Assembly (NCBI GenBank): GCA_049522195.1
Contig: JBEKOB010000004.1
Location: 20,809-84,808, forward strand
DNA: 64,000 nucleotides
Direction of reading: 5' to 3'
Origin: Bacteroidota bacterium
GTDB lineage: Bacteria > Bacteroidota > Ignavibacteria > UBA10030
A program made the translations under genes and the position numbers. Positions 1-26,052 of this stretch are shown here, in pieces. Positions within the stretch are counted from its first letter, which is position 1, and each line of letters opens with the position of its first letter. Below the pieces are notes generated by a model that made no database searches, had not been told where the DNA came from, and was given only the letters and a program-made list of their open reading frames with translations.

Positions 1-422
1 ACCACTGTTTCGACATGACGATCGGCGAAGACCGCGGGGCGTTCGTTGACACGATCATAAGCGAGACAGGCAATACAGGCGTCGATGTTGCCCTCGAGAT
101 GTCAGGCAGCTACCGGGCCTATGAAGATGCTGCCCGTGTTATCCGGATGGGGGGCACATTCTCTCTCCTCGGGATCCCTTCGGGCACGATGCAAGTCGAC
201 TTCGCGAAGAATATCATCTTCAGTGGCATAACAGTTCATGGAATTATCGGGCGACGGGTATTCCAGACATGGGACCAGATGGAAGTGTTGTTGAAGGCAG
301 GACTCGCGAAGCAGCTAATGAAGACCGGTTTTGTCACGCATCAACTGCCGCTGGAACGGTTTGAGGAAGGCTTTCAGGCGATTCGTAATGGCGATGCGTA
401 TAAGGTGCTCCTCAAGCCCTGA
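1..422 (+). CDS. tdh: L-threonine 3-dehydrogenase, C-terminal part (5' end outside window)
   Basis: ORF 15..422 stays open in the same frame back to the window edge. Translation matches the C-terminal half of Zn-dependent Tdh (VDVALEMSG, GGTFSLLGIP, FQTWDQM, GDAYKVLL). kbl paralogs lie downstream. Confidence 0.8.
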   Translation, partial: HCFDMTIGEDRGAFVDTIISETGNTGVDVALEMSGSYRAYEDAARVIRMGGTFSLLGIPSGTMQVDFAKNIIFSGITVHGIIGRRVFQTWDQMEVLLKAGLAKQLMKTGFVTHQLPLERFEEGFQAIRNGDAYKVLLKP

Positions 423-463
423 GAAGGGGTGAAGGGCACATATCTTGATTTTGTAGATCGATC

Positions 464-844
464 ATGGCCATAGGAATTGGAACAGACGTCGTCGAAATTG
501 ATCGCTTGAGAAAGCTGAGGCACCGAGCCGAGTTCCTAGCGCAGGTATTCACACGCACCGAGATCCAGAACGCGCCCCGCGGTCCCTCTCAAGACACATT
601 CTACGCTACGCTTTTTGCGATCAAAGAAGCTCTGTTGAAAGCGCTGGGGTGTGGTCTGAAGAGCGGTTGTTTGTGGCACAATATCCAAATCACGCATGAT
701 TGGAAACCCCACTTGTCCGGCCTCCTCGGGCGTCTCGCCGAGGAGAAGTCGGTATCGAAAATCCACGTTTCACATTCACACTCAAACAGAAACGCCATTG
801 CCTTCGTTTTGATTGAAACAACCACTGAGGAGGAGATCCTATGA
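464..844 (+). CDS. acpS: holo-[acyl-carrier-protein] synthase (4'-phosphopantetheinyl transferase, AcpS type)
   Basis: 126 aa. N-terminus MAIGIGTDVVEIDR and the FAIKEALLKALG motif are typical of AcpS. Its stop overlaps the next ATG (ATGA at 841-844). Confidence 0.85.
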   Translation: MAIGIGTDVVEIDRLRKLRHRAEFLAQVFTRTEIQNAPRGPSQDTFYATLFAIKEALLKALGCGLKSGCLWHNIQITHDWKPHLSGLLGRLAEEKSVSKIHVSHSHSNRNAIAFVLIETTTEEEIL

Positions 845-2541
845 GTAACATCGGCTCCTATGAGGCAAGATACAAAGACTTCGATTGGAAGACGGCGGCG
901 GAAGAACTTGGATATGGTAAAGATGGAAAATACAATATCGGCTATTTCTGCAGTGATCGTATTTGTGAGATGGGAGGTGGGGGAAAGGTAGCCCTGTTTT
1001 GGGAAGGGTTCACAGGTGAAGTGAAGCGGTACACCTACGACGACCTGAGGATGTACAGTAATTCCTTCGCAACGATGCTGAGGGAAAGCGGGTTGCAGCT
1101 TGGAGATCGCATTTGCCTGTTCATGGATCGGATCCCGGAGCTTTACATAGCGTTCCTTGGCGTGCTCAAGATGGGGGGTATCGTCCAGCCTTTGTTCTCG
1201 GCGTTTGGAGAGGACGCGCTGGAGATGCGGCTGGAAGATGCAAAGACGAGGGCGATTCTGACGACCCGCAAGCACCTGGGCAAGGTGAGAAGGATCCGTG
1301 CTTCACTTCCGGAGTTGGCGGTCGTCATCGTAGTTGACGCGGGTGGACGGGCGATGGAAAATGGGGAGATTGCCTTTTCTATGGAAAGCGCGCCGAGGCA
1401 GAAGGAGATCAACATCGCTCAGGTTGGGCCGGAGTCCCCTTCAGTCCTTCACTATACTTCGGGAACGACGGGAAAGCCGAAAGGGGCATTGCACGTTCAC
1501 TCTTCGATCATTGCTCAGGCGATAACCGCTCGATGGGTGCTTGACCTTCGCCCTGATGACATCTATTGGTGCACGGCAGACCCTGGTTGGGTCACGGGGA
1601 CATCGTACGGGATCATTGGTGCCTGGGCGAGCGGGATAACGCAGGTCGTTCTTGACGCGGGGTTCAGTGCGCACAAGTGGTACGCGTTCATCGAGAAGCA
1701 CAAGGTAACAGTCTGGTACTCGGCTCCGACAGCTATCCGTTTGTTGATGAAGGAGGGGCTTGAGCCGGTCAGCAAGCATGACCTTTCGTCATTGCGGCAC
1801 CTGGTCAGTGTCGGAGAGCCACTGAATGCTGAAGCAGTCATCTGGTCGGAGAAGGCGTACGGACTTCCATTTCATGATTCATTCTGGCAGACCGAGACGG
1901 GTTCGATTGTGATATCAAACTACCCCGGAATGAAAATCAAACCTGGCTCGATGGGAAAGCCGTTTCCGGGGATCACAGCGACTGTTCTGAATCCGAAGAC
2001 CTATGAGCCGATTGAGACGCCCGGCACAATCGGGCTTATTGGTTTGAAACCAGGATGGCCATCGATGTTCCGGTCATATTGGAACAGCCAGGAAGCATAC
2101 GACAAGAAGTTCCGGAACGGCTGGTACATCTGCGGTGATCGCGCCAGCACTGACAGCGAGGGGTACTTTTGGTTCGTTGGGCGAGACGATGACGTCATCA
2201 ACACAGCAGGGCATCTCGTCGGCCCGTTTGAAATAGAGTCGGCGCTCCTGGAGCATCCTTCAGTTGCAGAATCCGCTGCGGTCGGGAAACCGGATCCGAT
2301 AAACATGGAAGTTGTCAAAGCCTTCATTGCGCTCAAGCCCGGTTACGTGAAGAGTGATGACCTCGGCATGGAAATCATGAACTACATCCGCAAGAGGCTC
2401 TCACCGTTGGCCATGCCGCAAGAAATTGAGTTCGTCGATTCGCTTCCCAAGACCAGAAGCGGCAAGATCATGAGACGGCTCCTGAGAGCAAAAGAGTGGG
2501 GTGAAGAAATAGGAGACATCTCGACTCTTGAAAACGACTAA
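841..2541 (+). CDS. AMP-forming acyl-CoA/acyl-ACP synthetase (AcsA-like adenylate-forming enzyme)
   Basis: 566 aa. AMP-binding signature YTSGTTGKPKG, a GDRA...GYFWFVGRDDDVI core and a C-terminal PKTRSGKIMRR motif. Overall resembles Bacillus-type AcsA. Confidence 0.8.
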   Translation: MSNIGSYEARYKDFDWKTAAEELGYGKDGKYNIGYFCSDRICEMGGGGKVALFWEGFTGEVKRYTYDDLRMYSNSFATMLRESGLQLGDRICLFMDRIPELYIAFLGVLKMGGIVQPLFSAFGEDALEMRLEDAKTRAILTTRKHLGKVRRIRASLPELAVVIVVDAGGRAMENGEIAFSMESAPRQKEINIAQVGPESPSVLHYTSGTTGKPKGALHVHSSIIAQAITARWVLDLRPDDIYWCTADPGWVTGTSYGIIGAWASGITQVVLDAGFSAHKWYAFIEKHKVTVWYSAPTAIRLLMKEGLEPVSKHDLSSLRHLVSVGEPLNAEAVIWSEKAYGLPFHDSFWQTETGSIVISNYPGMKIKPGSMGKPFPGITATVLNPKTYEPIETPGTIGLIGLKPGWPSMFRSYWNSQEAYDKKFRNGWYICGDRASTDSEGYFWFVGRDDDVINTAGHLVGPFEIESALLEHPSVAESAAVGKPDPINMEVVKAFIALKPGYVKSDDLGMEIMNYIRKRLSPLAMPQEIEFVDSLPKTRSGKIMRRLLRAKEWGEEIGDISTLEND

Positions 2542-2578
2542 CGATGAACCGATACAGCTTCTTTCCCAAGGAGGAACT

Positions 2579-2833
2579 ATGGCTGAAGACATCAAGAAGG
2601 TGCTCATCGAGTACGTGAAGAAGGAGTATTTGGACGAAGATTCCGATCAGGAAATCACTGAAGACACCAAGCTGATCTCGAGTGGGATCGTTGATTCCTT
2701 TTCGATGGTGTCACTCAAGATGTTTCTGGAGAAGAAATTTCAGATCAAGATCCCGGATGAAAAAGCGACACCCGAAGCGTTCGATTCAGTTACGAGCATC
2801 ATCAAACTGCTAACGGAATTCACACCTCTCTGA
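2579..2833 (+). CDS. stand-alone acyl carrier protein
   Basis: 84 aa from the ATG at 2579, preceded by AAGGAGGA. Acidic helical protein with a GIVDSFSMVSL phosphopantetheine-serine motif. The TTG at 2528 given in the ORF track overlaps the ligase 3' end and is unlikely to be the start. Confidence 0.75.
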   Translation: MAEDIKKVLIEYVKKEYLDEDSDQEITEDTKLISSGIVDSFSMVSLKMFLEKKFQIKIPDEKATPEAFDSVTSIIKLLTEFTPL

Positions 2834-2843
2834 AGGAGGTTCT

Positions 2844-4091
2844 ATGTCCTACAGCGAAAAAGCTAGTGTGCATTATGCGAACGAGCTGATGTGCATCCGG
2901 GGAGCGGGGTTATTCAAGGAAGAGCGTCAAATCTTGTCTCCCCAGATGGCGCGCATCATGGTCGAATTCCCGGCCGGGGCGCCGGCCAAGGGAGTGCTCA
3001 ATTTCTGCGCGAACAACTATCTCGGATTGTCCAGCCATCCCGAGGTCGTGGAAGCAGCTCATAAGGGCCTCGATTCGCACGGCTACGGGATGTCCTCCGT
3101 CCGCTTCATCTGCGGGACACAGGATATCCATCGTGAACTCGAAAGGAAATTGTCTGAATTCCTTGAGACTGAAGATACAGTGTTGTTTCCTTCCTGTATG
3201 GAAGCCAACGCTGGACTTTTTGAAGTGGTCTTGGAAAAGGATGATGCGATGATTGCCGATCGTCTCGTCCATGCCTCAATTGTGGACGGGATGAGACTGT
3301 GCAAGGCGCAACTCTACAACTACAAACACATGAATATGCAGCACCTTGAGGAGAAGCTTCAGGAGACTCAGGGCTGTCGATTCCGGATGATCATAACCGA
3401 TGGGGTGTTTTCGATGGATGGTGACATCGCACCTCTTGATAAAATCTGTGACCTTGCCGACAAATACGACGCGTTGGTCATGGTGGATGATTCACATTCG
3501 ACTGGTTTCCTCGGAAAGCTCGGAAAGGGAACGCACGAGCATTGCGGGGTGTTGGGACGTATTGACGCCATCACAACAACGTTAGGGAAGGCGCTCGGTG
3601 GCGCTGCTGGTGGATGCGTCAGCGGCCGCAAAGAGATCGTGGAATTGTGCAGGCAGCGGGCGCGGCCGTACCTCTTCTCCAATACTGTTCCCCCCGTCGT
3701 CATCGCTGCATCGATCAAGGTGATCGACCTCATTTCAAAGTCCACCGAGAGACGGAACAAGCTTGAAGAAAACACGAAATACTTTCGGGAAAAAATGACC
3801 CAAGCCGGATTGGATATCAGACCGGGCGTACATCCAATTGTCCCTGTCATGCTCTACAATGCGAAGCTTGCTCAGGACGTTGCACGAGATCTTTATGAAG
3901 AGGGCATTTACGCGGTCGGATTTTTCTATCCCGTCGTTCCGCAGGGCCAGGCCCGCATTCGTGTGCAAATATCAGCCGACCATGAGCGAGAGCATCTCGA
4001 CAAAGCCATCGAGGCATTCACGAAGGTCGGGGCCAAGTACAATATCCTCGGCAAAAAGAAAGACGAAGTCATTGCCATGTATGGAATGTGA
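2844..4091 (+). CDS. PLP-dependent alpha-oxoamine synthase, divergent Kbl-like paralog
   Basis: 415 aa. Carries [25 protein letters not shown] and TLGKALGG (PLP lysine). Diverges from Kbl at otherwise conserved blocks and has a C-terminal extension. GAAGGAGG RBS, 11 nt after the ACP stop. Confidence 0.8.
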   Translation: MSYSEKASVHYANELMCIRGAGLFKEERQILSPQMARIMVEFPAGAPAKGVLNFCANNYLGLSSHPEVVEAAHKGLDSHGYGMSSVRFICGTQDIHRELERKLSEFLETEDTVLFPSCMEANAGLFEVVLEKDDAMIADRLVHASIVDGMRLCKAQLYNYKHMNMQHLEEKLQETQGCRFRMIITDGVFSMDGDIAPLDKICDLADKYDALVMVDDSHSTGFLGKLGKGTHEHCGVLGRIDAITTTLGKALGGAAGGCVSGRKEIVELCRQRARPYLFSNTVPPVVIAASIKVIDLISKSTERRNKLEENTKYFREKMTQAGLDIRPGVHPIVPVMLYNAKLAQDVARDLYEEGIYAVGFFYPVVPQGQARIRVQISADHEREHLDKAIEAFTKVGAKYNILGKKKDEVIAMYGM

Positions 4092-4165
4092 AAAACTTGA
4101 ATACATTGGCCCACCGATTAATTGGGAACCATCTTTAGAATAGAAGGAGGAGGGAACGTATTTTC

Positions 4166-5377
4166 ATGTCTGTCCACGAACGAGTACGCGAATTCTATCA
4201 CAAGGAGCTGATTGAGCTTCAATATGCTGATCTCTTCAAAGAAGAGCGGATCATTCATTCTCCGCAAGGCGCCGACATTTCAGTTGAATTCCCCGTGAAC
4301 ACAGACCAGAGTCAGGTGGTCAATTTCTGCGCGAACAACTACCTGGGTCTCTCCAGTCATCCTGCCGTCATCTCGGCCGCGAAGCATGCTTTGGAGGAAA
4401 GGGGATTCGGCATGTCCTCTGTCAGGTTTATTTGCGGGACGCAGGATCAACACAAAGAGCTCGAACGAAAGATCTCGGAATTTCTGGGGATGGAGGATGC
4501 AATTCTGTACTCCTCTTGCTTCGACGCGAATGGGGGTGTTTTCGAGGCACTGTTGAGCGAGGAGGATGCCCTCATATCGGATGAACTCAACCATGCGTCG
4601 ATCATTGACGGGATTCGCCTGTGCAAGGCAGAGCGCCATCGGTACAAACATGGAGACATGAAAGACCTCGAGCACCATCTGAAAGAAACCCAGAACAAAC
4701 GGTTCAGGATGATTGTGACTGATGGGGTGTTTTCGATGGATGGGGATGTTGCCAAGCTTGACGAGATATGCAACCTCGCGGAGGAGCACGACGCGATTCT
4801 TCTGGTGGATGATTCGCACGCGACCGGATTTGTCGGGAAAACGGGGAGAGGCACGCACGAACATCACGATGTGATGGGAAGGGTCGACCTCATAACAACG
4901 ACCTTCGGCAAAGCCCTTGGCGGTGCAGCAGGCGGCTGCATTGTGGGGCAGAAGGTGTTTATCGATATCCTGCGTCAGCGCTCCCGTCCATACCTATTCT
5001 CCAATACATTGAGTCCCGTTGTGGTCGGAGCGACGATCAAAGCAATCGGTTTGCTGATGGAGTCGACTGCCCTGCGTGACAAACTCGATGAAAATGCCCG
5101 GTATTTCAGGCGGCGCATTCGCGAAGCTGGTTTTCAAATCAAAGACGGATTCCATCCTATCGTACCGATCATGCTCGGTGATGCGGGACTTGTCCAGGTC
5201 ATGGCCCGTGAGCTCTATGGCGAAGGCATCTACGTGGTGGGATTCTTCTACCCCGTCGTTCCTCGGGGCACAGCGAGGATCCGCGTCCAGATCTCTGCGG
5301 CACATGAGAAACATCACATCGACAAAGCAATTGAGGCCTTTGCAAAGGTTGGAAAGAAGCTGGGCGTCATCAAGTAG
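4166..5377 (+). CDS. kbl: 2-amino-3-ketobutyrate CoA ligase (glycine C-acetyltransferase)
   Basis: 403 aa. Near-collinear with E. coli Kbl, including [37 protein letters not shown] and a GVIK-type C-terminus. Strong AAGGAGGAGGG RBS. Confidence 0.85.
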
Positions 5378-5439
5378 TCATCTGTAACCCGAACGCAGGT
5401 GCTCCACCTGAAAGTGGCATACTAGGAGTCTCGTCAGGA

Positions 5440-6576
5440 GTGAAGAACCGTCTCGTCTTCGTAGATCTTCTCAGGGGTTGGGCCACGATCATCATGATCG
5501 AGGTTCATGTTTTCAACGCCTTCCTGCTGACGGACATTAAGAATGCGGGATGGTTTGGCTGGGTAAACTTTGTCAACGGATTGGTCGCTCCGAGCTTTCT
5601 CTTCGTCGCGGGATTTGTATTTGTCGTGGTGAGCGATCGAAAGCTCGAAGAATTCCGGACATATGGCAAGGCGTTCTGGCGGCAGCTAAGCCGGATTTTC
5701 CTGATCTGGGTTATTGGATACGGACTTCATCTCCCGTACTTTTCGCTCACACGGACTCTGCGCGATTCGACGGCTTCGCAGCTCCTGCTCTTCAGTCAGT
5801 CCGATATACTTCACTGCATTGCCCTCGGTCTCCTCATCGTGTTCCTCGGGCGAATTGTCATTAAGCGGGATCCGTACTATCAGCTCTATCTCGTGCTGAT
5901 TGGATGTCTGACTGTCCTCGTCGCTCCGTTCATCTGGGGAATTGACTTTTCTATCTCCCTGCCTGGCTTCGTGGCGCCATATCTCAATGACCACCAGGGT
6001 TCAATCTTTCCAATATTCCCCTGGCTTGGATTCCTGATGTTTGGCGCTGTGGCAGCCTTTGCGTACAAGAAAGCGCGTGCATCAGGCGAGGAGAAAAAGT
6101 ACTTCTTGATTCTCACAGCGATTGGATTGTTTTTGGTCATAGCGGGTTCGCTCTTGATCGATCTCCCTTCTGACATCCCTGGTATGTCGACGGCGATCAG
6201 AGCCAATCCGGTTTTCTTCGCCTCTCGGTTGGGCATCGTGTTCCTTCTCCTTGTCGCATGCTGGTACTACGCTGAGTGGCGGAAGACCGAGAAATCGTTT
6301 GTGCTCGACGTGAGTAGGGAGTCGCTCCTGGTCTATACCGCGCACCTGCTGGTCATCTACGGCCGGTTTTGGAACGGGAACAGTCCAGCTTTCTACTATG
6401 GGGAGTCGCTTACCGTTCTTCAGGCGATCATTGTGACCATCGCCTTGATTGTCGTTATGATTGTTTTCGCGAAGGTGTGGTCGACGATAAAGCAGAAATC
6501 CATGCGTTGGGCGCGCACTATTTCCTACGCAACGGGAGTCATCGTCCTTGCAGTTTTTGTAATCCGTGTGTACTGA
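5440..6576 (+). CDS. polytopic membrane protein, DUF1624 / HGSNAT-like acyltransferase family
   Basis: 378 aa with about 10 predicted hydrophobic helices. The N-terminal R-x-x-FVDLLRGWATIIM motif is typical of the DUF1624 / heparan-alpha-glucosaminide N-acetyltransferase-like family. GTG start. Confidence 0.55.
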   Translation: MKNRLVFVDLLRGWATIIMIEVHVFNAFLLTDIKNAGWFGWVNFVNGLVAPSFLFVAGFVFVVVSDRKLEEFRTYGKAFWRQLSRIFLIWVIGYGLHLPYFSLTRTLRDSTASQLLLFSQSDILHCIALGLLIVFLGRIVIKRDPYYQLYLVLIGCLTVLVAPFIWGIDFSISLPGFVAPYLNDHQGSIFPIFPWLGFLMFGAVAAFAYKKARASGEEKKYFLILTAIGLFLVIAGSLLIDLPSDIPGMSTAIRANPVFFASRLGIVFLLLVACWYYAEWRKTEKSFVLDVSRESLLVYTAHLLVIYGRFWNGNSPAFYYGESLTVLQAIIVTIALIVVMIVFAKVWSTIKQKSMRWARTISYATGVIVLAVFVIRVY

Positions 6577-6683
6577 TGGTCTTCGGGATGGCAGTCGCGG
6601 TTAGCAGGCCATCGTCAATGGCAGGCAAACTCACTAGGGTAAGAGAAGCCGATAGTGGATCATTACACATAAATGGAGAGTGA

Positions 6684-7853
6684 ATGGAACTTGTTCTAGG
6701 CATAATTCTCGTCATAATTACGGGACTGTTGATTGTGATTTTTCTGCGTCTTCGCGCCGCGCAGCAGCCTGAGGCAACGCAGGCAACCCTCCTGATCCAG
6801 CAGCAAATCGATTCTTTGCGCGGTGAAGTCAATTTAAGCCTCAGAAATACGTCGGACTCACTGGGATCGTCTCTCAAAGCTACGCAAGACGCCTTGTACC
6901 AGAGTCTCAAGATGACATCGGAGACGATGAATCAGCAAATGAATGCAGTCACAACGCAATTATCGAGCGTCACGCAGCAGATACAGAACAATACCGGTCA
7001 GGTTGGAACGCGTCTCGACACCGCCGCGAAGGTGATCCAGGACGTCCAAAACAAGCTGGGAGAGCTTGGACAGGCCACAAAGGAGATCAAGGAACTTGGC
7101 CAGAGTGTCTCGAAGCTTGAGGAAATGCTGAAAGCGCCGAAACTGCGCGGAGGTCTCGGTGAGCTCCTCCTGGAAGATCTTCTCAAACAGGTCTTACCAA
7201 TCAGGTCGTTCGAGATGCAGTACCGGTTTAAAAGCGGCCAGGCAGTCGATGCGGTGATCCACCTCTCGGGAGGGATGGTACCGGTTGACTCCAAGTTCCC
7301 GCTTGAGAATTTCCAGAAGATGCTGGAGGCGAAAAGCGAGCAAGAAAAGCGAACTGCAGTCCGGACATTCAGATCGGACGTGAAGAAGCACATCGATGCA
7401 ATTTCGGATAAATATATTCTGCCGGACGAAGGGACGTTCGATTTCGCCCTCATGTATGTCCCGGCGGAGAACATCTACTACGAGACGATCATCAAGGACG
7501 AGACTGTCTCCGAAGAAGAGGGATTGTACAGCTACGCGATGAAGAAGAGGGTGATACCGGTGTCGCCTAACAGTTTTTACGCCCACCTGCGCGTGATCGC
7601 CATGGGATTCAAAGGGCTGCAGATTGAGAAGAGCGCAAAGGAGATTTTCCAGAGCCTTGAGCGTCTGGGGTCCGAATTGCAAAAATTCTCGGAAACGTTT
7701 GAAACGCTTGGAAATCAGTTGAGCAACGCTAAGAACAACTTCGACAAAGCCGACAAACAACTGAATAATCTCACAGAGAAGTTCAAAACCATCCAGTTAA
7801 TTCCTGAAGCCGGAAGTGTGAAACAGCTGGATCTTGGTGGAGAGACGAAATAG
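6684..7853 (+). CDS. rmuC: DNA recombination protein RmuC
   Basis: 389 aa. N-terminal TM helix, long coiled-coil, and a C-terminal RmuC nuclease-like region (VDSKFPLENF, ALMYVPAENIYYE). Confidence 0.8.
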   Translation: MELVLGIILVIITGLLIVIFLRLRAAQQPEATQATLLIQQQIDSLRGEVNLSLRNTSDSLGSSLKATQDALYQSLKMTSETMNQQMNAVTTQLSSVTQQIQNNTGQVGTRLDTAAKVIQDVQNKLGELGQATKEIKELGQSVSKLEEMLKAPKLRGGLGELLLEDLLKQVLPIRSFEMQYRFKSGQAVDAVIHLSGGMVPVDSKFPLENFQKMLEAKSEQEKRTAVRTFRSDVKKHIDAISDKYILPDEGTFDFALMYVPAENIYYETIIKDETVSEEEGLYSYAMKKRVIPVSPNSFYAHLRVIAMGFKGLQIEKSAKEIFQSLERLGSELQKFSETFETLGNQLSNAKNNFDKADKQLNNLTEKFKTIQLIPEAGSVKQLDLGGETK

Positions 7854-7877
7854 TGTAGGAGTTGCTGCGAGAGAGTA

Positions 7878-7910
7878 CAAAAAAAAGTCCCCTTGCGGGG
7901 ACTTTTTTTG
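7878..7910. terminator. bidirectional rho-independent terminator (rmuC / csp)
   Basis: A8-AGTCCCC-TTGC-GGGGACT-T7. Perfect stem flanked by an A-run and a T-run, between convergent genes. Confidence 0.8.
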
Positions 7911-7920
7911 TTAGTAGGGT

Positions 7921-8124
7921 CTAGACACGAACGATGTTGTACGCTCGTTTTCCTTTTTGTTCTTCTTTGAGTTCGAACTTGACTGTATCGCCCTGAGAAA
8001 GAACATCACGAAAACCGGTATTCTTCACGTTGCTTTTGTGAAAGAAGACCTCATCGCCAGCCTCGGTCACGATAAATCCAAAACCCTTCGACACGTTAAA
8101 GAACTTTACGGTCCCATTGTTCAT
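7921..8124 (-). CDS. cold-shock protein (CspA family)
   Basis: 67 aa. MNNGTVKFFNVSKGFGFI carries the RNP1 motif; VFFHKS is RNP2-like. Confidence 0.9.
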   Translation of the reverse strand: MNNGTVKFFNVSKGFGFIVTEAGDEVFFHKSNVKNTGFRDVLSQGDTVKFELKEEQKGKRAYNIVRV

Positions 8125-8154
8125 AGGTATTCAACTTCCCACGTCGTGAGCGAC

Positions 8155-8190
8155 TGAAAAAGAAAACCCCAGGAGAATATCTCGCTGGGG
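8155..8190 (-). terminator. rho-independent terminator downstream of second csp
   Basis: On the minus strand: CCCCAG-loop-CTGGGG followed by TTTTCTTTTT. Confidence 0.6.
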
Positions 8191-8211
8191 TTGTATAGAG
8201 AATAGACGAAC

Positions 8212-8412
8212 TTAGACCTTCTCTACGTTCGCGGCTTGCAGACCCTTCGGTCCTTGCTGGACATCGAACTGAACCTGGTCGCCCTCGTTCAAAGTGCGGT
8301 AGCCATCACCACGAATCGCCTTAAAATGGACGAAAACATCTTCGCCGTTTTGACGTGTGATGAAGCCAAAGCCCTTGGCTCCGTTGAACCACTTAACTGT
8401 TCCTTTTTCCAT
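8212..8412 (-). CDS. cold-shock protein (CspA family)
   Basis: 66 aa from the ATG at 8412 ([23 protein letters not shown]), with an AAGGAAG RBS. The longer 81-aa ORF-track start adds a non-homologous leader. Confidence 0.9.
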
Positions 8413-8823
8413 GGAACTTCCTTTCGGAAATGATGATTGAAGATGTACACGAGGCAACTAGCCGAAACGTTTTGCGTGCTATGGATGTGTTGTGATGCCC
8501 GGCCTCGTGAAGATTGGAAGGTCACGAAAAGAGGACATGAACAATGCATCTACAGCGACGACGCACAAGCTAGGCTACGTCTGCCCAGAGGGTAGCGAGG
8601 TCGCGCCATCCACTGGACTTTGAGGTGTACGTTAATTTGCAGTTGTAATATAGGTCTATTTCGGGTTACAAACAAGCAGAAAATTGAGATTGAGCCCGTG
8701 TTTCGTGAGTTTCCGGGTCAATCTCTGGATAAGACTGAAGAATTTAGCTATCTTTACCGAGGTATAGTGAGAAGTACTATCCTCTATCCCGTGGTCCACT
8801 CCATTGAGTTTTGAAGGAATCTG

Positions 8824-9915
8824 ATGAAATCTCTGAAGAGAATTGGTGTTTTGACTGGTGGCGGCGATTGTCCGGGCCTGAATGCAGTTATCCGGGGTAT
8901 CGCCAAGCCCGCGATGTCGTACTTTGGAGCAACGGTGGTCGGCGTTCTGGATGGATTTGAGGGATTGGTTGAGGGAAGAATGCGTGAACTAACACCAAAG
9001 GATGTCTCCGGTATCGTGAACCTGGGGGGAACAATCTTGGGGACCTCAAACAAAGGGGATCCGTTCCATTTCCCCGTCGAGACTCCCCAAGGGATCGATA
9101 TTCTGGACTGCTCGGAGAATGCAATACGGAACTACCGGGACTGGAACCTGGATGCATTGATCGCGATCGGCGGCGACGGGACGATGCATATCGTCGATAA
9201 GTTCACTGATCTCGGCCTGAATCTCATAGGTGTTCCAAAGACGATCGACAACGATCTTTCAGCGACAGACGTGACATTCGGCTACGATTCTGCCGTTACT
9301 GTTGCCACAGAAGCTATCGACCGCCTTCACACGACCGGATCAGCTCATCACAGGGTTATGGTCATTGAGGTTATGGGGCGTTATGCCGGCTGGATTGCTC
9401 TGGGATCAGGGCTGGCAGGTGGGGCCGATGTAATTCTCATTCCGGAGATTCCATTTCAATGGGACAAGATTTGCCAGCATGTCCTTAAACGCGGGAAACA
9501 TGGCAGCAAATTCAGCATCATCTGCGTTGCAGAGGGAGCAAAGCCGGCCGAAGGAGGTCTGATTGTTCGTGAACAGGATTCCAAGCGGACCGATCCGATT
9601 CGTCTTGGGGGCATTGGCGAAGTCGTCGGTGCGAAGATCACTGAGATGACAGGGCTGGAGACGCGCGTGACGGTACTAGGGCACCTGCAACGTGGTGGAA
9701 GCCCGACACCGTACGATCGTATCCTTGCCAGCAAGTACGGCACAAAAGCGCTCGAGCTTGCTTCCGAGAAAAAGTTCGGTCACATGGTAAGCCTCCAGGG
9801 AAATGAAGTTACTTCCGTTCCCGTGAAGGAAGCGATTCTGAAGCTTCGCACCGTTCCGTTGGACTCTCAACTGATCCGGGCTGCAAGAGCTGTGGGCACC
9901 TCCTTTGGTGACTGA
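8824..9915 (+). CDS. pfkA: 6-phosphofructokinase (PfkA family; phosphoryl donor not assignable)
   Basis: 363 aa. Carries GVLTGGGDCPGLNAVIRG, IGGDGT, PKTIDND, MGRYAGW and GHLQRGG. Confidence 0.85.
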   Translation: MKSLKRIGVLTGGGDCPGLNAVIRGIAKPAMSYFGATVVGVLDGFEGLVEGRMRELTPKDVSGIVNLGGTILGTSNKGDPFHFPVETPQGIDILDCSENAIRNYRDWNLDALIAIGGDGTMHIVDKFTDLGLNLIGVPKTIDNDLSATDVTFGYDSAVTVATEAIDRLHTTGSAHHRVMVIEVMGRYAGWIALGSGLAGGADVILIPEIPFQWDKICQHVLKRGKHGSKFSIICVAEGAKPAEGGLIVREQDSKRTDPIRLGGIGEVVGAKITEMTGLETRVTVLGHLQRGGSPTPYDRILASKYGTKALELASEKKFGHMVSLQGNEVTSVPVKEAILKLRTVPLDSQLIRAARAVGTSFGD

Positions 9916-9945
9916 GTCGTCGACATTTCGTATATTCTGAAAGCA

Positions 9946-9970
9946 CACCGCGGCCCAACCGGGCCGCGGT
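9946..9970 (+). terminator. stem-loop downstream of pfk (no U-tract)
   Basis: Perfect 10-bp stem ACCGCGGCCC / GGGCCGCGGT with a 4-nt loop. No T-run follows, so terminator function is uncertain. Confidence 0.45.
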
Positions 9971-10030
9971 CCATTCACTCCTGTACCGCAGTTCCATAAT
10001 CTCCTTGAATCTCACAAAGAACACACCGCT

Positions 10031-11644
10031 ATGAACAATCAATCACTGCTTCGTTTCCTGTGCGTTGTCTCCCTTTTCGTAGCTGCCTCTGCACAGGGGC
10101 AGGAAAGCGTCTTCAACGTCGGCCAATTTGGAGCGACAGGTAATAAATCCGAGAATGCCCAACAGGCCATTCAACGTGCGATCGATTCATGTTCACACTC
10201 GGGGGGCGGCGTCGTTTATCTGCCGCCGGGCGAATACTCTTCCGGGACACTCCATCTGCGAAGCCATGTTAGATTCTACATTGAGGCGGGAGCAACACTG
10301 TACTCGATCAAGACAAAGGAAGCATTCGATAAAGACGCGTTACTCTATGGCGAGGATTTGGAGAATATCACGATTGAAGGACGAGGAACGATCGACGGGC
10401 AGGGGGCCTACGAGTGGAGGCTGAATGACATTCAGGATGACTTCATTCGCCCGAATCAGGAGATGATGGAGGCGATCGGCAAACCGCTGATCCGCTCGTT
10501 CCCGAAAAAAGATCAATTCGGCAAGCTGATCCTCCTTCTGCGTTGCAAAGACGTCCGAATAACGGGAATTTCACTGGTTCGATCCCCGTCATGGACGATC
10601 CATCCATATGGCTGCGAGCGAATGATCATCGACGGCGTGTACATCCGATCGAGTCTTGCGGAAGGCGTTTGGGCAGACGGCATCGATCCTGACGGCTGCA
10701 AGGACCTTCGAATCGCGAATTGTACGATCGAAACAGGAGACGATGCGATTGTATTCTACTCTATGAACTGGTTCGGACCGGCGCTTCCGTGTGAAAACAT
10801 CACGGTTACGAACTGCCGGCTCTCGTCGGCGTCGAGCGCGATCAAGTTCTGTGATGGAAACATGAACTGCGTCCGAAACGTCACGATCGACAATTGTACG
10901 ATTACCAACTCCAATCGCGGTATTGCATTCATGGTATTTGACGGCGGCTATGTCAGCGATGTCGTGTTGTCGAACCTCACAATCGAGTGCCGGCGTCACG
11001 ACTGGTTTTGGTGGGGAGACGGGGATCCCTTCCACTTCAACATCAAACGACGAAGTGAAGTGCACAAGAACGTGAAGTTTGAAAACGAGCCCCCGGCTGG
11101 TTCGATCCGAAATATCCTGATTCAGAATGTCGTTGCGCACGGCAAAGGATCAAGCATCATCAACGGTCACCCCAAGAGCTGGCTGGATGGCGTAACGTTT
11201 GACAATGTGAAGTTGTATCTCTCTTCCGATTCTACCGCACCGTACGACAAGTCCGTGCATGCCCTGAAGTTCCAGATGGCGAAAAACCTGAAACTCCGGA
11301 ATGTCGAAGTCTTCTGGGGTAATCCGGGGTCGAAGCATTGGCGTTCTGCACTCTACATTGAAGATGTCAAGGGGCTCGAAGTGGATAACTTCGGAGGGCG
11401 ACCGCCGGTGACCGGTTCGCTTCTTCCGGCAGTCGAGTTGAACCGGGTTGAAAACGCAGTGATTCGAAATTCTACGGTCCAGGATGGGACATCGGTTTAT
11501 CTGGGCGTTTTCGGCAAGGAATCTGCAAACATTCTTCTGACCAATAATGACCTGAGAAAAGCCTCAACGCCATACTTGATTGGAAAGGAAGTATCACAGA
11601 GTTGCGTGATCGATTTGAACAATCTGTCCGGAGGAAAGAAATGA
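10031..11644 (+). CDS. secreted glycoside hydrolase family 28 / pectate-lyase-fold (polygalacturonase-like) protein
   Basis: 537 aa. Signal peptide (LLRFLCVVSLFVAASAQG), the N-terminal FGATGN...AIQRAID motif, GH28-like blocks ADGIDPD and ETGDDAIVF, and SAIKF with repeated beta-helix coils. Confidence 0.7.
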   Translation: MNNQSLLRFLCVVSLFVAASAQGQESVFNVGQFGATGNKSENAQQAIQRAIDSCSHSGGGVVYLPPGEYSSGTLHLRSHVRFYIEAGATLYSIKTKEAFDKDALLYGEDLENITIEGRGTIDGQGAYEWRLNDIQDDFIRPNQEMMEAIGKPLIRSFPKKDQFGKLILLLRCKDVRITGISLVRSPSWTIHPYGCERMIIDGVYIRSSLAEGVWADGIDPDGCKDLRIANCTIETGDDAIVFYSMNWFGPALPCENITVTNCRLSSASSAIKFCDGNMNCVRNVTIDNCTITNSNRGIAFMVFDGGYVSDVVLSNLTIECRRHDWFWWGDGDPFHFNIKRRSEVHKNVKFENEPPAGSIRNILIQNVVAHGKGSSIINGHPKSWLDGVTFDNVKLYLSSDSTAPYDKSVHALKFQMAKNLKLRNVEVFWGNPGSKHWRSALYIEDVKGLEVDNFGGRPPVTGSLLPAVELNRVENAVIRNSTVQDGTSVYLGVFGKESANILLTNNDLRKASTPYLIGKEVSQSCVIDLNNLSGGKK

Positions 11645-12705
11645 AAGCGCGAAAGGATCAAGAAAGAAGCGGTCTGATGCGCGCGGTTGAGATTACGAGA
11701 TTCGGTCCACCCGAAGTGCTGAAGATCTCTGAGGTGCTTGTCCCACAAATTGGAGAGGGGGATGTTCGTGTGCGTGTGAAGACGATCGGAGTGAATTTCG
11801 CCGACGTGTTCGCCCGGCTCGGTTACTACCCTGCAATTCCGAAGCCGCCGTTCATCCCGGGCCTGGAATTCGCCGGCACGGTTGACGCTGTGGGGAAGTC
11901 CGTGAAGGGACTTCGGAAAGGGGATCGTGTCCTTGGATTCAGCAGGCTAAATGCCTACGCTGAATTCGTCTCAGTCCCTGCAGCATTGCTGACCCGCATG
12001 CCTTCACGTATGTCTTTCAAGGAAGCCGCCGCCCTGGGCGTAACATATCTGACTGCCTACCATGGACTTGTCACTCTCGGACAAATGAAAAAGGGAGAGA
12101 GCCTGTTGCTGCACGCCGCCGCCGGTGGCGTTGGTACAGCTGCCCTGCAGATAGCAAAGCATCTCGGCGTTCGAGTCTACGCTACGGTGGGCTCCCAGTC
12201 GAAAACTCAGACGGCCCGGGAGCAAGGTGCAGCTGTGGTCATCAACTACGCAGACGAGGATTTCGCAGAAATCATACGACGTGAGAGCCACGGCCAGGGG
12301 GTCGACGTCATTCTTGATTCCGTTGGAGGAAAGGTCTTTCGGAAGGGTTGGAGACTCCTCAGACCTATGGGCCGATACGTCCTGTATGGATTTGCAGCTG
12401 CAGCGGGTCCGAAGGGGATCCCCAAATTAAAGGCTCTCATTGAATCTGCTTCTTTTCCCCTGATCTATCCTCCATCCATTGTTCCGAGAAATGTGACTTT
12501 GAGCGGGTTCAACCTGTACTTCCTTTTCGACAAGGTCGCCTATTTACAGCAGACGATGCGGAAGCTTCTGGGTTGGTATGACAAAGGTGTCGTGAGGCCT
12601 GTGATTGGGGCGGTATATCCATTCGAGAAGATCCGGGAAGCACACCAATTTCTCCAATCACGACAAAGCATCGGCAAGGTGGTGGTGACGGTTGGGATCG
12701 GGTGA
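11641..12705 (+). CDS. NADPH:quinone oxidoreductase / zinc-type alcohol dehydrogenase-like protein
   Basis: The ATG at 11641 overlaps the GH28 stop (ATGA) and has GGAGGA 7 nt upstream. MDR family blocks present: GVNFADV, LLHAAAGGVGTAALQ, GKVVV. An alternative start is the Met of MRAVEI, about 36 nt downstream. Confidence 0.75.
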   Translation: MKARKDQERSGLMRAVEITRFGPPEVLKISEVLVPQIGEGDVRVRVKTIGVNFADVFARLGYYPAIPKPPFIPGLEFAGTVDAVGKSVKGLRKGDRVLGFSRLNAYAEFVSVPAALLTRMPSRMSFKEAAALGVTYLTAYHGLVTLGQMKKGESLLLHAAAGGVGTAALQIAKHLGVRVYATVGSQSKTQTAREQGAAVVINYADEDFAEIIRRESHGQGVDVILDSVGGKVFRKGWRLLRPMGRYVLYGFAAAAGPKGIPKLKALIESASFPLIYPPSIVPRNVTLSGFNLYFLFDKVAYLQQTMRKLLGWYDKGVVRPVIGAVYPFEKIREAHQFLQSRQSIGKVVVTVGIG

Positions 12706-15925: not shown

Positions 15926-16381
15926 ATGGGTCAGCACAATAGTTCCAGTTCTTCCAACGAAATGGATAGTGGTTTCAGAATACTCGAGCACCCGTCAGAT
16001 ATAGGACTTGAAGTGTGGGGTCCCGATCTCGCTGAGGTGTTCAGACAGGCAGCGCTTGGGCTCACTTCGATTCTTGTTGATCCTGCGTCCGTCCGTGTTC
16101 GTGAGCGGCGCACGCTGGGTCTCAAGGGGAGTGACAACGAAAACCTCCTGGTCCGCTGGCTCTCGGAAATCCTCTATCTTTACGATGGAGCGGACTTTCT
16201 CGTGAGTGACGTCGAAATCCGGAGATTGCAGGACTCTTCGCTGGCAGCCATCTTGAAGGGTGAAAAGGTGGACACCGGACATCATCAATTCAGGATGGAT
16301 GTAAAAGCGGTGACGTATCATCAATTGAATATCGCGTTAGATGAAAACGTCTGGACCGCGAGGGTGTTTTTGGACATTTAG
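15926..16381 (+). CDS. archease
   Basis: 151 aa. The pattern EHPSDIGLEVWG...VKAVTYHQL...VFLDI is typical of archease. Sits immediately upstream of rtcB. Confidence 0.8.
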   Translation: MGQHNSSSSSNEMDSGFRILEHPSDIGLEVWGPDLAEVFRQAALGLTSILVDPASVRVRERRTLGLKGSDNENLLVRWLSEILYLYDGADFLVSDVEIRRLQDSSLAAILKGEKVDTGHHQFRMDVKAVTYHQLNIALDENVWTARVFLDI

Positions 16382-16382
16382 G

Positions 16383-17810
16383 ATGCTTCAGAAACTTGAC
16401 GAATATCGCTACCTGATACCGAAGAGCTTTCGGGAGGGGATGAACATCGAGGGGCTCATTTACGCGAGTCCCACCCTGATCAAGGCGATTGAGAATGATT
16501 TGACCCTGATGCAGGTGGCAAATGTAGCAACGCTGCCTGGCTTGGTCGGGCGATCGCTCGCGATGCCGGATGCTCATCAGGGCTACGGGTTTGCCATCGG
16601 TGGCGTTGCAGCCGCTGATCTCCAGAAGGGAGTTGTCTCTGCCGGAGGAGTGGGCTTTGATATCAACTGTGGCGTGCGCCTCCTTCGCTCGGACTTTCGA
16701 CTCGATGCGGTAAGGCCCCAGATCGATGCATTGCTCAACCAGATGTTCCGGGACATACCGTGTGGGACGGGGAAAAAGGGAATTGTAAGCGGATTGAGCG
16801 ATGTCGAACTCGACCGCGTGTTGGAACTGGGAGCCCGGTGGGCTGTTGAAAAAGGGTACGGGATATTCGAAGACCTGGCGCATATCGAGGAGGGGGGTAC
16901 GATCCCGCATGCCAATCCAGCCAAGGTGAGCCGGAGGGCGAAAGAGCGCGGTAGGGACCAACTCGGAACGCTTGGATCAGGAAATCACTTTGTTGAAGTG
17001 CAGTACGTATCGGAAATTTTCGACGAGGAAGCAGCGCAATCATTTGGGTTATACGGTGGTCAGATTGTCGTGCTGATTCATACCGGTTCACGCGGCCTCG
17101 GTCACCAGGTTTGCACCGACTATCTCGAGATCATGCAGGAAGCGATGCGGAAATACAAAATCACGATCGTAGATCGTCAGCTTGCCTGCGTTCCGATCCA
17201 ATCCCCCGAGGGGCAAAGTTACCTCCAGGCGATGGCTTCTGCTGCCAACTTCGCGTTCGCAAACAGGCAGATGATCACGCACTGGGTACGACAGGCCTTT
17301 GAGCAGGTTCTTGGCTCGGATGATCTGAAAATCGTCTACGACGTTTGTCACAACATTGCGAAGGAAGAATTGCATCGCGTAGACGGTTCCTCCCGCAAGG
17401 TGCTTGTCCATCGAAAGGGAGCGACCCGGGCATTCCCGAAGCACCGCCCCGAGATTCCACCCGACTACAACGAAGTCGGTCAACCCGTTCTAATCCCCGG
17501 GAGCATGGGAACCTGCTCTTACGTTTTGGTGGGCACAGAAAAGGCGATGGAGGAAACATTTGGATCGTCGTGCCACGGAGCGGGGAGAGCGATGAGCAGG
17601 CACGCGGCAAAGAAAGACATCACTGCAGATGAATTGCTGCGTGATCTGAAAGAGAAAGGCATCCATGTCCGCGGCGCGTCCAAAAGCGGCCTCACAGAGG
17701 AAAAGCCGGACGCATATAAGGATGTCAGTGCAGTCGTTGAGGTCGTGCATAACGCGGGGATTGCCCGCAAGGTTGCGAAGATGGTACCGATAGGTGTTAT
17801 CAAAGGGTGA
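16383..17810 (+). CDS. rtcB: RNA-splicing ligase RtcB
   Basis: The ATG lies 1 nt after the archease stop. Carries MPDAHQGYGF, DINCGVR, GSGNHF, HTGSRGLG and SSCHGAGR. Confidence 0.9.
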   Translation: MLQKLDEYRYLIPKSFREGMNIEGLIYASPTLIKAIENDLTLMQVANVATLPGLVGRSLAMPDAHQGYGFAIGGVAAADLQKGVVSAGGVGFDINCGVRLLRSDFRLDAVRPQIDALLNQMFRDIPCGTGKKGIVSGLSDVELDRVLELGARWAVEKGYGIFEDLAHIEEGGTIPHANPAKVSRRAKERGRDQLGTLGSGNHFVEVQYVSEIFDEEAAQSFGLYGGQIVVLIHTGSRGLGHQVCTDYLEIMQEAMRKYKITIVDRQLACVPIQSPEGQSYLQAMASAANFAFANRQMITHWVRQAFEQVLGSDDLKIVYDVCHNIAKEELHRVDGSSRKVLVHRKGATRAFPKHRPEIPPDYNEVGQPVLIPGSMGTCSYVLVGTEKAMEETFGSSCHGAGRAMSRHAAKKDITADELLRDLKEKGIHVRGASKSGLTEEKPDAYKDVSAVVEVVHNAGIARKVAKMVPIGVIKG

Positions 17811-24999: not shown

Positions 25000-26052
25000 T
25001 CACTGAACAACCCAGGTTTCCCCGGAGTTCAGAAGCTTTTTGAAATCACCAATGCCCCGCTTCTCCTGTGCGAATGCGATCTGGCGCTCCATCTCGGCTT
25101 CATACACCGGGCGGTCAATTGCCAGGAAGATGCCGACGGGGCGGGGGAGATGCGGTTTGTACGTCATATCAGCCAGAATGAAGGAGAGCGTCGTATCCTT
25201 CTCGTTGTGGACAAGGAGATCATTCACCGAGTTTTTCCCATCCTTCAGGGAGACGACTTCGGGGCTGAAACCATTCAGTTTGATGCCTTTGTCTTTCTCC
25301 TTGCCAAAGAGGAGAGGTTTTCCGTGCTCGATGAACACGACGTTGTCGTCCTTTGTCTCTTTCTCAGTGAACGGGAAGAATGCGCCGTCGTTGAAGACGT
25401 TGCAATTCTGATAGATTTCGACGAACGAAGTCCCTTTGTGTTCCGCAGCGCGCTTGATGATCCCCTGCATATGTTTCGGGTCCCTGTCAAGCGTCCTTGC
25501 AACAAATGTGGCGCTAGCGCCGAGTGCCAGAGCCGCCGGATTGAACGGATAATCGACCGAGCCGTATGGCGTCGACTTCGTAACCTTGCCCATTTCCGAG
25601 GTGGGCGAGTATTGCCCCTTTGTCAGCCCGTAGATCTGATTGTTGAACAACAGAACCTGGAGATCCAGATTGCGCCGCATCAGATGAATGAAATGGTTTC
25701 CGCCGATGCTCATCCCATCTCCGTCGCCGGTGACGACCCACACTGAGAGGTCAGGTCTGGCAATTTTCAGGCCGGATGCTACCGCAGTCGCTCGACCGTG
25801 GATGCTGTGAAATCCATAGGTCTCCATGTAGTACGGAAAGCGGCTCGAACAACCGATACCCGATACGAAGACCATTTTGTTCTTTGGGATCCCGAGATCG
25901 GGCATCACTCTTTGCGTCTGAGCGAGGATCGAATAGTCGCCGCAACCCGGGCACCATCGAACATCCTGATCGCTCGAAAAGTCTTTGGCTGTGTACTTTG
26001 GTACCGGAATCTCGTTTGTGCCTTTCATAATCTCTTCGACAAGCGTGCTCAT
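25000..26052 (-). CDS. korB: 2-oxoglutarate:ferredoxin oxidoreductase, beta (TPP-binding) subunit
   Basis: 350 aa. WCPGCGDY and the GDGD...GGNH TPP motif. Overlaps korA by 4 nt. Confidence 0.85.
   Translation of the reverse strand: MSTLVEEIMKGTNEIPVPKYTAKDFSSDQDVRWCPGCGDYSILAQTQRVMPDLGIPKNKMVFVSGIGCSSRFPYYMETYGFHSIHGRATAVASGLKIARPDLSVWVVTGDGDGMSIGGNHFIHLMRRNLDLQVLLFNNQIYGLTKGQYSPTSEMGKVTKSTPYGSVDYPFNPAALALGASATFVARTLDRDPKHMQGIIKRAAEHKGTSFVEIYQNCNVFNDGAFFPFTEKETKDDNVVFIEHGKPLLFGKEKDKGIKLNGFSPEVVSLKDGKNSVNDLLVHNEKDTTLSFILADMTYKPHLPRPVGIFLAIDRPVYEAEMERQIAFAQEKRGIGDFKKLLNSGETWVVQ

Follow-up and report, generated by a model that had tools for sequence, protein, structure and literature searches.

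The first 6,576 nt of a 64,000-nt stretch of DNA (hereafter the window) from a member of the Ignavibacteria (lineage UBA10030; assembly GCA_049522195.1, contig JBEKOB010000004.1, positions 20,809 to 84,808) raise the question of why an adenylate-forming ligase and a stand-alone acyl carrier protein (ACP), together with a second alpha-oxoamine synthase (AOS), are encoded among genes resembling those for the threonine dehydrogenase Tdh and the glycine C-acetyltransferase Kbl. A preliminary description of this DNA had seen in the trio a candidate pathway from a fatty or other carboxylic acid to a long-chain base, an aminolipid or a signal precursor. The analysis described here points to smaller substrates. 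With a probability put at just under one half, the trio is part of a carrier-dependent C2 system in which an acetate-[ACP] ligase and an ACP-dependent glycine C-acetyltransferase are coupled to threonine dehydrogenase.

Conservation of the ligase-carrier-AOS unit

Seven open reading frames (ORFs), all on the forward strand, occupy this region, and an ORF check upheld the gene order, strand and coordinates of the preliminary description. The ligase gene (841-2541, +) is preceded by the ribosome-binding site GGAGGAG, and its ATG overlaps the stop codon of an upstream acpS gene in the sequence ATGA at 841-844, as had been noted before. It is followed by the gene for an 84-residue carrier (2579-2833, +), whose ATG has GGAGGA ahead of it, and by that for AOS-1 (2844-4091, +), a synthase dependent on pyridoxal phosphate (PLP). 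The spacer between the carrier stop and the AOS-1 start is 10 nt long and contains AGGAGG.

The carrier belongs to a distinct family with 65 representatives at E <= 1e-10 in an exhaustive search. When single genomes representing each GTDB species were scanned for its motif GIVDSFSM, no fewer than 589 species-level genomes proved to carry the family. All locus counts given here refer to the best 80 of the loci from these genomes, chosen by ACP similarity, in which the window proteins were compared by BLASTP with all ORFs; taxon labels are those given by the submitters of the metagenome-assembled genomes (MAGs). The 80 loci span more than ten phylum-level lineages. Their labels are Ignavibacteria-type (21), Aminicenantes (11), WOR-3 (9), Bacteroidota (5), Acidobacteriota/Thermoanaerobaculia (5), Zixibacteria (4), Calditrichota (4) and Chrysiogenota (4), with singletons or pairs from UBP2, Fermentibacteria, Eisenbacteria, Polyangia, Deferrimicrobium and Clostridia.

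Of 72 informative loci, 71 have an AOS-1 ortholog directly 3' of the carrier gene; the gap between the two has a median of 10 nt, and as this adjacency recurs in many phyla the arrangement is far beyond chance. The ligase gene is found no more than 500 nt upstream of the carrier in 55 of 71 loci, and in 64 of them when the whole upstream part of the locus is counted. Identities across phyla are 63-89% for AOS-1 orthologs and 63-88% for ligase orthologs. A Tdh-like gene is present in 28 of the 80 loci, acpS (upstream of the ligase, in several phyla) in 30 and a second AOS in 37. On these counts, ligase, ACP and AOS-1 are a conserved functional unit with ACP and AOS-1 as its tightest pair, while tdh, acpS and canonical kbl are common accessories. 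The trio recognised in the preliminary description is thus genuine and stays together in relatives; what has to be given up is the idea that it was inserted into a tdh-kbl frame, as it is the trio that turns out to be constant at the core, with tdh and acpS varying around it along with the second kbl.

The chromosome CP070802.1, labelled WOR-3, carries an operon (locus L034, 6846-12778) with the order tdh-acpS-ligase-ACP-AOS-1, followed by a gene for a SoxB/ThiO-like FAD oxidoreductase. Since no second Kbl is encoded there, AOS-1 fills the kbl slot of this operon. The WOR-3 Tdh passes both Tdh cut-offs (465.1 against 458.35 and 453.9 against 380). The oxidoreductase scores below all its family cut-offs, and it may act on the glycine produced.

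The surroundings of the unit differ between lineages. Clustering of every ORF up to 7.5 kb away from the ACP gave mostly shadow ORFs, and the other neighbour families (GH3, ABC ATPase, RsmB, HAD hydrolase, histidine kinases, LptF/G, SdhAB and, in WOR-3 loci, a DAO/SoxB-like gene) each occurred in at most 11 of the 80 loci. The GH3 gene, NagZ-like, lies 3' of AOS-1 in 11 loci. Ignavibacteriaceae loci (L060, 12914-14215; L047, L069 and L074) have ACP, AOS-1, a second Kbl-like AOS and then an LptF/LptG-family permease, and the E. coli BL21 spt cluster is likewise flanked by extra lptF/lptG paralogs (L092, 4921-7067), which is either a coincidence or a hint of a link to the envelope. Two of these loci have the flavoprotein and Fe-S subunits of a succinate dehydrogenase/fumarate reductase directly 5' of the carrier in place of the ligase (L069, 7482-9928; L074, 7496-9942), with no ligase within about 10 kb upstream. 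In Aminicenantes and Chrysiogenota, small conserved ORFs of about 150 residues with no Pfam match lie directly 5' of the carrier (e.g. L082, 9451-9906; L058, 7291-7761), and a divergently oriented HAD-family hydrolase gene stands between ligase and ACP (e.g. L082, 8680-9348, -).

The carrier protein

Family assignments throughout were made with Pfam and NCBIfam models at their curated cut-offs. By this measure, all hidden Markov model (HMM) matches of the carrier fall short, with 53.8 against 130 for ACP_for_OlsHI, 20.6 against 20.8 for PP-binding and 31.2 against 70.45 for the AcpP model TIGR00517. Because these scores are only sub-threshold, the protein was modelled with AlphaFold. The model (pLDDT 87) has three main helices and places Ser40, the predicted site of phosphopantetheine attachment in GIVDSFSM, at the N-terminus of helix II. 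The best Foldseek matches are PigG (TM 0.84), the carrier of the Bradyrhizobium glycine:[carrier protein] ligase, and DltC, with the ACPs of fatty acid synthase (FAS) coming after them; complexes of AcpS with DltC are also among the matches. The serine motif IVDSFSMVSL of the preliminary description is present as reported, and G36 and S40 are invariant in 27 of 27 diverse relatives. As modelled, the protein is a genuine stand-alone carrier, so that the original carrier-protein call now has structural backing. It is not the housekeeping AcpP of type II FAS when judged by profile and motif, as it misses the TIGR00517 cut-off and has DSF where AcpP has DSL. In a Rosetta-stone search, longer proteins with related carriers were fusions to alpha/beta-hydrolases (OlsI-like); these come from distant relatives and are uninformative for this module.

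Acyl substrate and thiol partner of the ligase

The ligase is an AcsA-type adenylate-forming enzyme. It passes the 'acetate--CoA ligase' model NF003313 with 771.7 against a cut-off of 729, and its best match in the PDB is AcsA 9g79 (572 aa, E 4e-170, about 47% identity). HMM annotation thus bore out the AcsA-like label that it had been given, as opposed to the type of AasR and the fatty acyl-AMP ligases. For the comparison of single residues, 61 orthologs were aligned with E. coli Acs, the numbering of which is shared with Salmonella Acs, and with B. subtilis AcsA. Of the 61 orthologs, 59-61 retain the acetate-pocket residues V310, T311, V386 and W414. Trp414 (Trp416 in the Methanothermobacter enzyme) is an experimentally established determinant of acyl chain length (PMC10455477). 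Acetate as the acyl substrate is therefore supported by the pocket residues together with the equivalog match, and a fatty acid is very unlikely because Trp414 and the rest of the acetate pocket are retained.

The thiol side of the enzyme looks different. Three arginines, R191, R526 and R584 in Salmonella numbering, act at the coenzyme A (CoA) or thioester step (PMC10455477). R526 is replaced by leucine in 61 of 61 orthologs, although it is arginine in E. coli Acs, in B. subtilis AcsA and in the other Acs of the PDB; R584 is kept, and the R191 region is not alignable in the short AcsA-type enzymes. In the Methanothermobacter enzyme, the R528A variant, equivalent to a loss of R526, was not saturable with CoA, and a role in stabilising the conformation for thioester formation has been suggested for the residue (PMC10455477). 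Two further changes are specific to the clade: V516 to Asp, in the same A8/hinge motif as R526, and W413 to Tyr or Phe. Compared with the AcsA type (B. subtilis AcsA, PDB 9g79; NF003313/PRK04319), the ligase of the module thus shares the acetate pocket, the equivalent of the catalytic Lys609, Gly524 and Arg584, but differs at positions 526, 516 and 413, in its synteny with a carrier and in its proposed acceptor, ACP.

One locus from an uncultured Ignavibacteria MAG (L043) has two tandem AcsA-type ligase genes 5' of the carrier (6427-8151 and 8236-9954), both with leucine at position 526. The upstream copy has Leu in place of Trp414, which gives a larger pocket, and with a score of 651 it fails the acetate--CoA ligase cut-off of 729. 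These features suggest that the paralog serves the same carrier by activating a larger acid.

AOS-1 and its canonical companion AOS-2

AOS-1 and the neighbouring AOS-2 (4166-5377, +) are both enzymes of the Kbl family. They pass TIGR01822 (618.7 and 628.9, cut-off 493) as well as NF005394 (599.4 and 619.3, cut-off 460), and orthologs of AOS-1 also exceed the Kbl cut-off (625 in WOR-3, 585 in Acidobacteriota). Scores of AOS-1 against the NCBIfam models for the serine palmitoyltransferase Spt are far below the cut-offs (317.5 against 640, 279.5 against 500 and 221.7 against 670). Identity to E. coli Kbl is 57% for AOS-1 and 60% for AOS-2, and the two share 62% with each other. In a neighbour-joining tree calculated without bootstrap, with E. 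coli BL21 Spt as its root, the carrier-adjacent sequences are monophyletic (70 of 70) and nested inside the Kbl family. The earlier view of AOS-1 as a divergent Kbl-like enzyme consequently holds with regard to its separate clade, but not with regard to its overall similarity to Kbl.

Within this clade the catalytic residues Lys244, His136, Asp210, His213 and Ser185 are invariant in all 70 members, and so are seven residues of the substrate cavity (N50, V79, H136, H213, L272, F273 and R368 in E. coli numbering). This cavity was defined by crystal structures of CnKBL with glycine or threonine bound (PMC9814548). The loop V79-R80-F81-I82-C83 (VRFIC) is identical in AOS-1 and Kbl, and reads S-R-M-A-N in Spt. 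We take it to be the loop that aligns with the succinyl-binding loop of 5-aminolevulinate synthase (ALAS). As both cavity and loop are Kbl-like and invariant, the predicted substrates of AOS-1 are glycine and a C2 thioester.

Differences from Kbl lie elsewhere. Relative to 30 canonical Kbl sequences, the AOS-1 clade shows the substitutions F74Y, Y108F, S109P, F112M, G116A, N135V, L264C, S268A, L298R and D334N, and it has a conserved C-terminal extension of about 12 residues with the consensus LgKtKqEIIdmYGm. Residues 406-413 of the extension are predicted as an ordered helix with a pLDDT of 85-92 in a model with an overall pLDDT of 74. The clade-invariant substitutions and the C-terminal helix sit outside the substrate cavity. 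Fixed synteny, clade-specific residues and this helix indirectly point to ACP rather than CoA as the thiol co-substrate of AOS-1. Taken together, the changes outside the acyl pockets (R526L in the ligase; N135V, F112M and the C-terminal helix in AOS-1) fit a switch of the thiol partner from CoA to ACP. AOS-2 has the residues of the Kbl group at every position that discriminates between the clades, which marks it as a canonical-type Kbl (glycine C-acetyltransferase) and as a frequent yet non-obligatory companion of the module. Compared with the Tdh-Kbl threonine cleavage system (E. coli tdh-kbl; KBL structures 1FC4 and 7BXP), AOS-1 therefore keeps catalytic and cavity residues and is often encoded near tdh, but is set apart as a distinct paralogous clade with a carrier gene ahead of it, usually with ligase and phosphopantetheinyl transferase (PPTase) genes as well, and often beside a canonical Kbl.

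Two other members of the AOS family were considered as models for AOS-1. A BioF-like reading with a pimeloyl substrate and an ALAS-like reading with a succinyl substrate were both rejected, given the retained acetate pocket, the retained VRFIC loop of Kbl and the lack of bio or hem genes nearby.

A proposed carrier-dependent C2 pathway and its direction

In the proposed pathway, AcpS would turn the 84-residue apo-carrier into its holo form. The ligase would then catalyse the reaction acetate + ATP + holo-ACP <-> acetyl-S-ACP + AMP + PPi, with ACP as the partner suggested by synteny and by the clade-invariant changes in the A8 loop, and AOS-1 would use the carrier thioester in the reaction acetyl-S-ACP + glycine <-> 2-amino-3-ketobutyrate + holo-ACP. 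The Tdh-family dehydrogenase would join this product to threonine (2-amino-3-ketobutyrate + NADH <-> L-threonine). The product of the module would be a C4 amino-keto acid, not a long-chain base; every step would be reversible, and in this genome the canonical CoA-dependent Kbl (AOS-2) would sit alongside. A relay from ligase to ACP to AOS-1 appears to be the most economical reading because of the clade-invariant changes in both enzymes, the WOR-3 operon, the co-located PPTase and the precedent of AasR, a ligase that recognises its cognate ACP.

As to the direction of the pathway, catabolism is slightly favoured over carrier loading. In the catabolic direction threonine would be converted to glycine and acetyl-ACP, from which the AMP-forming ligase working in reverse would obtain acetate and ATP; in the other direction, activation of acetate would feed the synthesis of 2-amino-3-ketobutyrate, threonine or aminoacetone. 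As far as is known, the Tdh-Kbl pair is catabolic in characterised cases, and the glycine/sarcosine-oxidase-like gene of the WOR-3 operon favours the same direction. So do the documented synthesis of ATP by reversal of AMP-forming Acs (PMC4992975, PMC13404658) and the fermentation of peptides by cultured relatives such as Caldithrix (PMC5317091). The loading direction is favoured by analogy with the behaviour of known carrier-loading ligases of the ANL superfamily, and by the tandem ligase paralog of L043 with its W414-to-Leu change.

Acetylation of a carrier-protein thiol at the expense of ATP is known from other systems. The acetate-[acyl-carrier-protein] ligases CitC of citrate lyase and MadH of malonate decarboxylase follow the same concept as the module, with carriers that bear 2'-(5''-phosphoribosyl)-3'-dephospho-CoA and belong to the lyase or decarboxylase complexes. 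To our knowledge, these ligases are not AcsA-type ANL enzymes and have no AOS partner.

Weighing the alternatives

Several observations speak against the carrier-dependent C2 pathway. Both the ligase and AOS-1 pass curated equivalogs of CoA-dependent enzymes, so that use of CoA is possible, and the ligase has kept R584, the contact to the 3'-phosphate of CoA. The assignment of ACP as the partner of both enzymes is inferred from synteny and clade-specific residues. The loci were picked by ACP similarity, which means that the 71 of 72 reads from ACP to AOS-1 and not conversely, and in 7 of 71 loci the stretch of about 8-10 kb upstream lacks a ligase. The nearest structural neighbours of the ACP are carriers of the aminoacyl type, leaving room for cargo besides acetyl, and N135V of AOS-1 adjoins the histidine that stacks on PLP and could change the specificity for the amino acid. 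Finally, there is no obvious selective reason for swapping CoA for ACP with a C2 unit.

Some of these points would be accounted for if there were no carrier chemistry at all, and the locus encoded an ordinary acetyl-CoA synthetase and a CoA-dependent Kbl paralog that are kept together as genes of acetate and threonine metabolism. The carrier would then serve another process or be a regulatory or structural subunit of AOS-1, in the manner of mitochondrial ACP for the PLP enzyme NFS1. Besides the equivalog scores, this explanation can draw on the retention of K609 along with R584 in the ligase, on the name 'glycine C-acetyltransferase' that proteins of the AOS-1 clade bear in all public sources, and on loci in which the ligase is displaced or absent. 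It is nevertheless unlikely: it leaves unexplained why ACP and AOS-1 should adjoin each other with such constancy over many phyla, why all 61 ligases have lost an arginine that is conserved in bona fide Acs and important for the CoA step, and why 30 of 80 loci also hold a PPTase gene. That AOS-1 forms its own clade and in 37 of 80 loci is accompanied by a second AOS, often a canonical Kbl, likewise argues for a distinct role. Another, rather improbable explanation retains the ACP-dependent Claisen architecture of the C2 pathway and changes its small substrates to Ala, Ser or Thr and/or C2-C4 acyl groups, which would give a small alpha-amino ketone such as a signal, a pyrazine or an aminoacetone-type metabolite. 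The AOS-1 substitutions N135V, F112M, Y108F/S109P and G116A would suit such a retuning since they cluster round the motif SCFDAN, where PLP binds, and round the residue that precedes the stacking histidine, as would the larger pocket of the tandem ligase paralog in one genome and the resemblance of the carrier to those of secondary metabolism such as PigG; Tdh/Kbl systems are also known to yield pyrazines derived from aminoacetone (PMC9814548). Set against this are the invariance of the seven Kbl cavity residues and of the VRFIC loop, the lack of conserved tailoring or export genes nearby, and a high identity across phyla and an occurrence in hundreds of species that look like core metabolism and not like signalling.

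The long-chain reading of the preliminary description, in which the ACP would carry a fatty acid or another long carboxylic acid for condensation with an amino acid, giving a long-chain base, an aminolipid or a sphingoid-like lipid, has its model in the sphingolipid trio of Rhodobacteria. There a specialised ACP (AcpR), its cognate acyl-ACP synthetase (AasR) and Spt form a working unit, encoded by CC_1165/1163/1162 in Caulobacter and ECD_02851/02853/02854 in E. coli BL21, in which AasR has its cognate ACP as the only acceptor and does not acylate CoA (PMC9386255). The parallel in gene logic that had been drawn is sound: in both cases an ANL-superfamily ligase is combined with a dedicated small carrier that is distinct from AcpP and encoded directly 5' of the AOS, here by 10 nt, and in the module, too, the AOS would use the carrier thioester. 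The presence of an LptF/LptG-family permease gene 3' of the module in some Ignavibacteriaceae, as at the spt cluster of E. coli BL21, and the fact that the ornithine-lipid ACP model is the best HMM match of the carrier, though far below its cut-off, lend this reading some colour. At the level of the proteins the likeness ends. Compared with the E. coli BL21 trio (L092), the ligase has only 24% identity to AasR and AOS-1 29% to Spt, and the match of ACP to AcpR is not significant (E = 0.03). AasR is of the fatty acyl-AMP ligase type, whereas the module ligase is AcsA-type with the Trp414 acetate pocket; Spt uses serine and a C16 acyl group, whereas AOS-1 keeps the Kbl cavity and loop where Spt differs, is predicted to use glycine and a C2 unit, and scores only 222-318 with Spt models that require 500-670. 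The rhodobacterial system moreover includes a reductase and a ceramide synthase and resides in other phyla. Across the 80 loci, the stretches of about 7.5 kb around the ACP show no recurrent family of ketoreductases, ceramide synthases or N-acyltransferases, which extends the earlier observation that none is visible nearby, and positions 1-12000 of the window hold no 3-ketosphinganine reductase and no ceramide synthase or N-acyltransferase. The resemblance to the sphingolipid trio is, by these comparisons, one of architecture with homology at the superfamily level and not one of family membership, and a lipid product is very improbable. No more credit is due to a Dlt-like modification of the envelope, in which the ligase would load the carrier and a polytopic HGSNAT/DUF1624 protein would pass the acyl (acetyl) group through the membrane and on to an acceptor outside the cytoplasm. 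While the window does encode ligase, carrier and an acetyltransferase-like protein of the HGSNAT family on one strand, and the modelled carrier structurally resembles DltC, just 2 of the 80 loci have the HGSNAT-like gene beside the module, there is no MBOAT protein, the ligase is AcsA-type and not DltA-type, and AOS-1, the most tightly linked partner, would be left without a role.

Accessory genes and genomic surroundings

The window begins with the 3' end (1-422, +) of a gene for a Tdh-family Zn-dependent dehydrogenase that resembles L-threonine 3-dehydrogenase. The upstream part of the contig was recovered from peatland metagenomes, where the same contig occurs in other samples (L001), and there the full gene encodes 408 aa (L001, 6618-7844). 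The best NCBIfam matches of this protein are the two Tdh equivalogs, but it stays below both (296 against 380 and 273 against 458). Its Zn ligands, both catalytic and structural, are intact, and relative to canonical Tdh it has insertions of 37 and 10 aa; the former follows the GRIVDAG strand and the latter lies in the Rossmann domain, in the Tdh-like proteins of this lineage and of L016 and L021. Its earlier designation as tdh agrees with the family of its best matches, with the reservation that the copy in the window is a divergent component. Genes 5' of the full-length tdh-like gene are unrelated (DUF1028, rsmB, rpmE and porQ of the type IX secretion system). The acpS gene (464-844, +) encodes an AcpS-type 4'-phosphopantetheinyl transferase (holo-ACP synthase; PF01648) that passes the equivalog-domain model TIGR00516 with 68.2 against 59.8.

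At the other end of the region, 62 nt after AOS-2, lies the gene for the HGSNAT_cat/DUF1624 polytopic membrane protein (5440-6576, +), which scores 50.1 bits with PF07786 (cut-off 22) and has no NCBIfam match. As both loci in which such a gene adjoins the module are close relatives (L011 and L022), it is probably a lineage-specific neighbour and not part of the conserved module.

A scan of the operon region for promoters and terminators gave counts not above those of shuffled controls. A search with Rfam at the gathering threshold through 141 kb from seven loci of different phyla found no glycine or other riboswitch, but only 6S and SRP RNA. Elsewhere in the window are two adjacent cold-shock-domain genes (7921-8124 and 8212-8457, both -) and genes for a phosphofructokinase (8824-9915, +), a subunit of 2-oxoacid:ferredoxin oxidoreductase (26049-27890, -) and RtcB (16341-17810, +). 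These genes are unrelated to the module and fit an anaerobic organism of the FCB group. None of ten large ORFs sampled beyond 12 kb of the window was for lipid, ACP or acetate functions.

Implications for the threonine-glycine-acetate node

No description of an ACP-linked Kbl or of an AcsA-type acetate-ACP ligase was found in the literature. The design of a ligase with a dedicated ACP and an AOS is itself known from the initiation of sphingolipid synthesis; what would be new is its application to the C2 node of Tdh, Kbl and Acs. We tentatively propose, with a belief that falls somewhat short of even odds, that the module represents an unrecognised 'acetyl-carrier protein' branch of central C2 and amino-acid metabolism, in which an AcsA-derived acetate-[ACP] ligase and an ACP-dependent Kbl let a dedicated phosphopantetheinyl carrier take the place of CoA at the threonine-glycine-acetate node. 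Such a branch would be at work in hundreds of anaerobic species, most of them uncultured, of the Ignavibacteriota, WOR-3, Aminicenantes, Zixibacteria, Calditrichota, Chrysiogenota and Acidobacteriota. The finding alone settles no long-standing open question. The module can be tested, however, since it occurs in relatives of the cultured Ignavibacterium album and Caldithrix.

If the proposal is true, there exists alongside the textbook CoA enzymes Acs and Kbl an ACP-dependent sister system, invisible to current annotation. Its parts bear the labels 'acetate--CoA ligase', 'acyl carrier protein' and 'glycine C-acetyltransferase', and flux would be mis-assigned in the metabolic reconstructions of several candidate phyla. 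The module would also provide natural examples of a switch from CoA to a carrier, both in ANL ligases (R526L, V516D and the A8 loop) and in an AOS (the C-terminal helix), which would be useful for enzyme engineering. For the organisms themselves, a threonine-derived acetyl thioester may yield ATP by reversal of the ligase, or the carrier may keep C2 flux apart from the acetyl-CoA pool. The ligase-ACP-AOS design would then reach down to a C2 substrate, which suggests that it is older and more general than has been thought.

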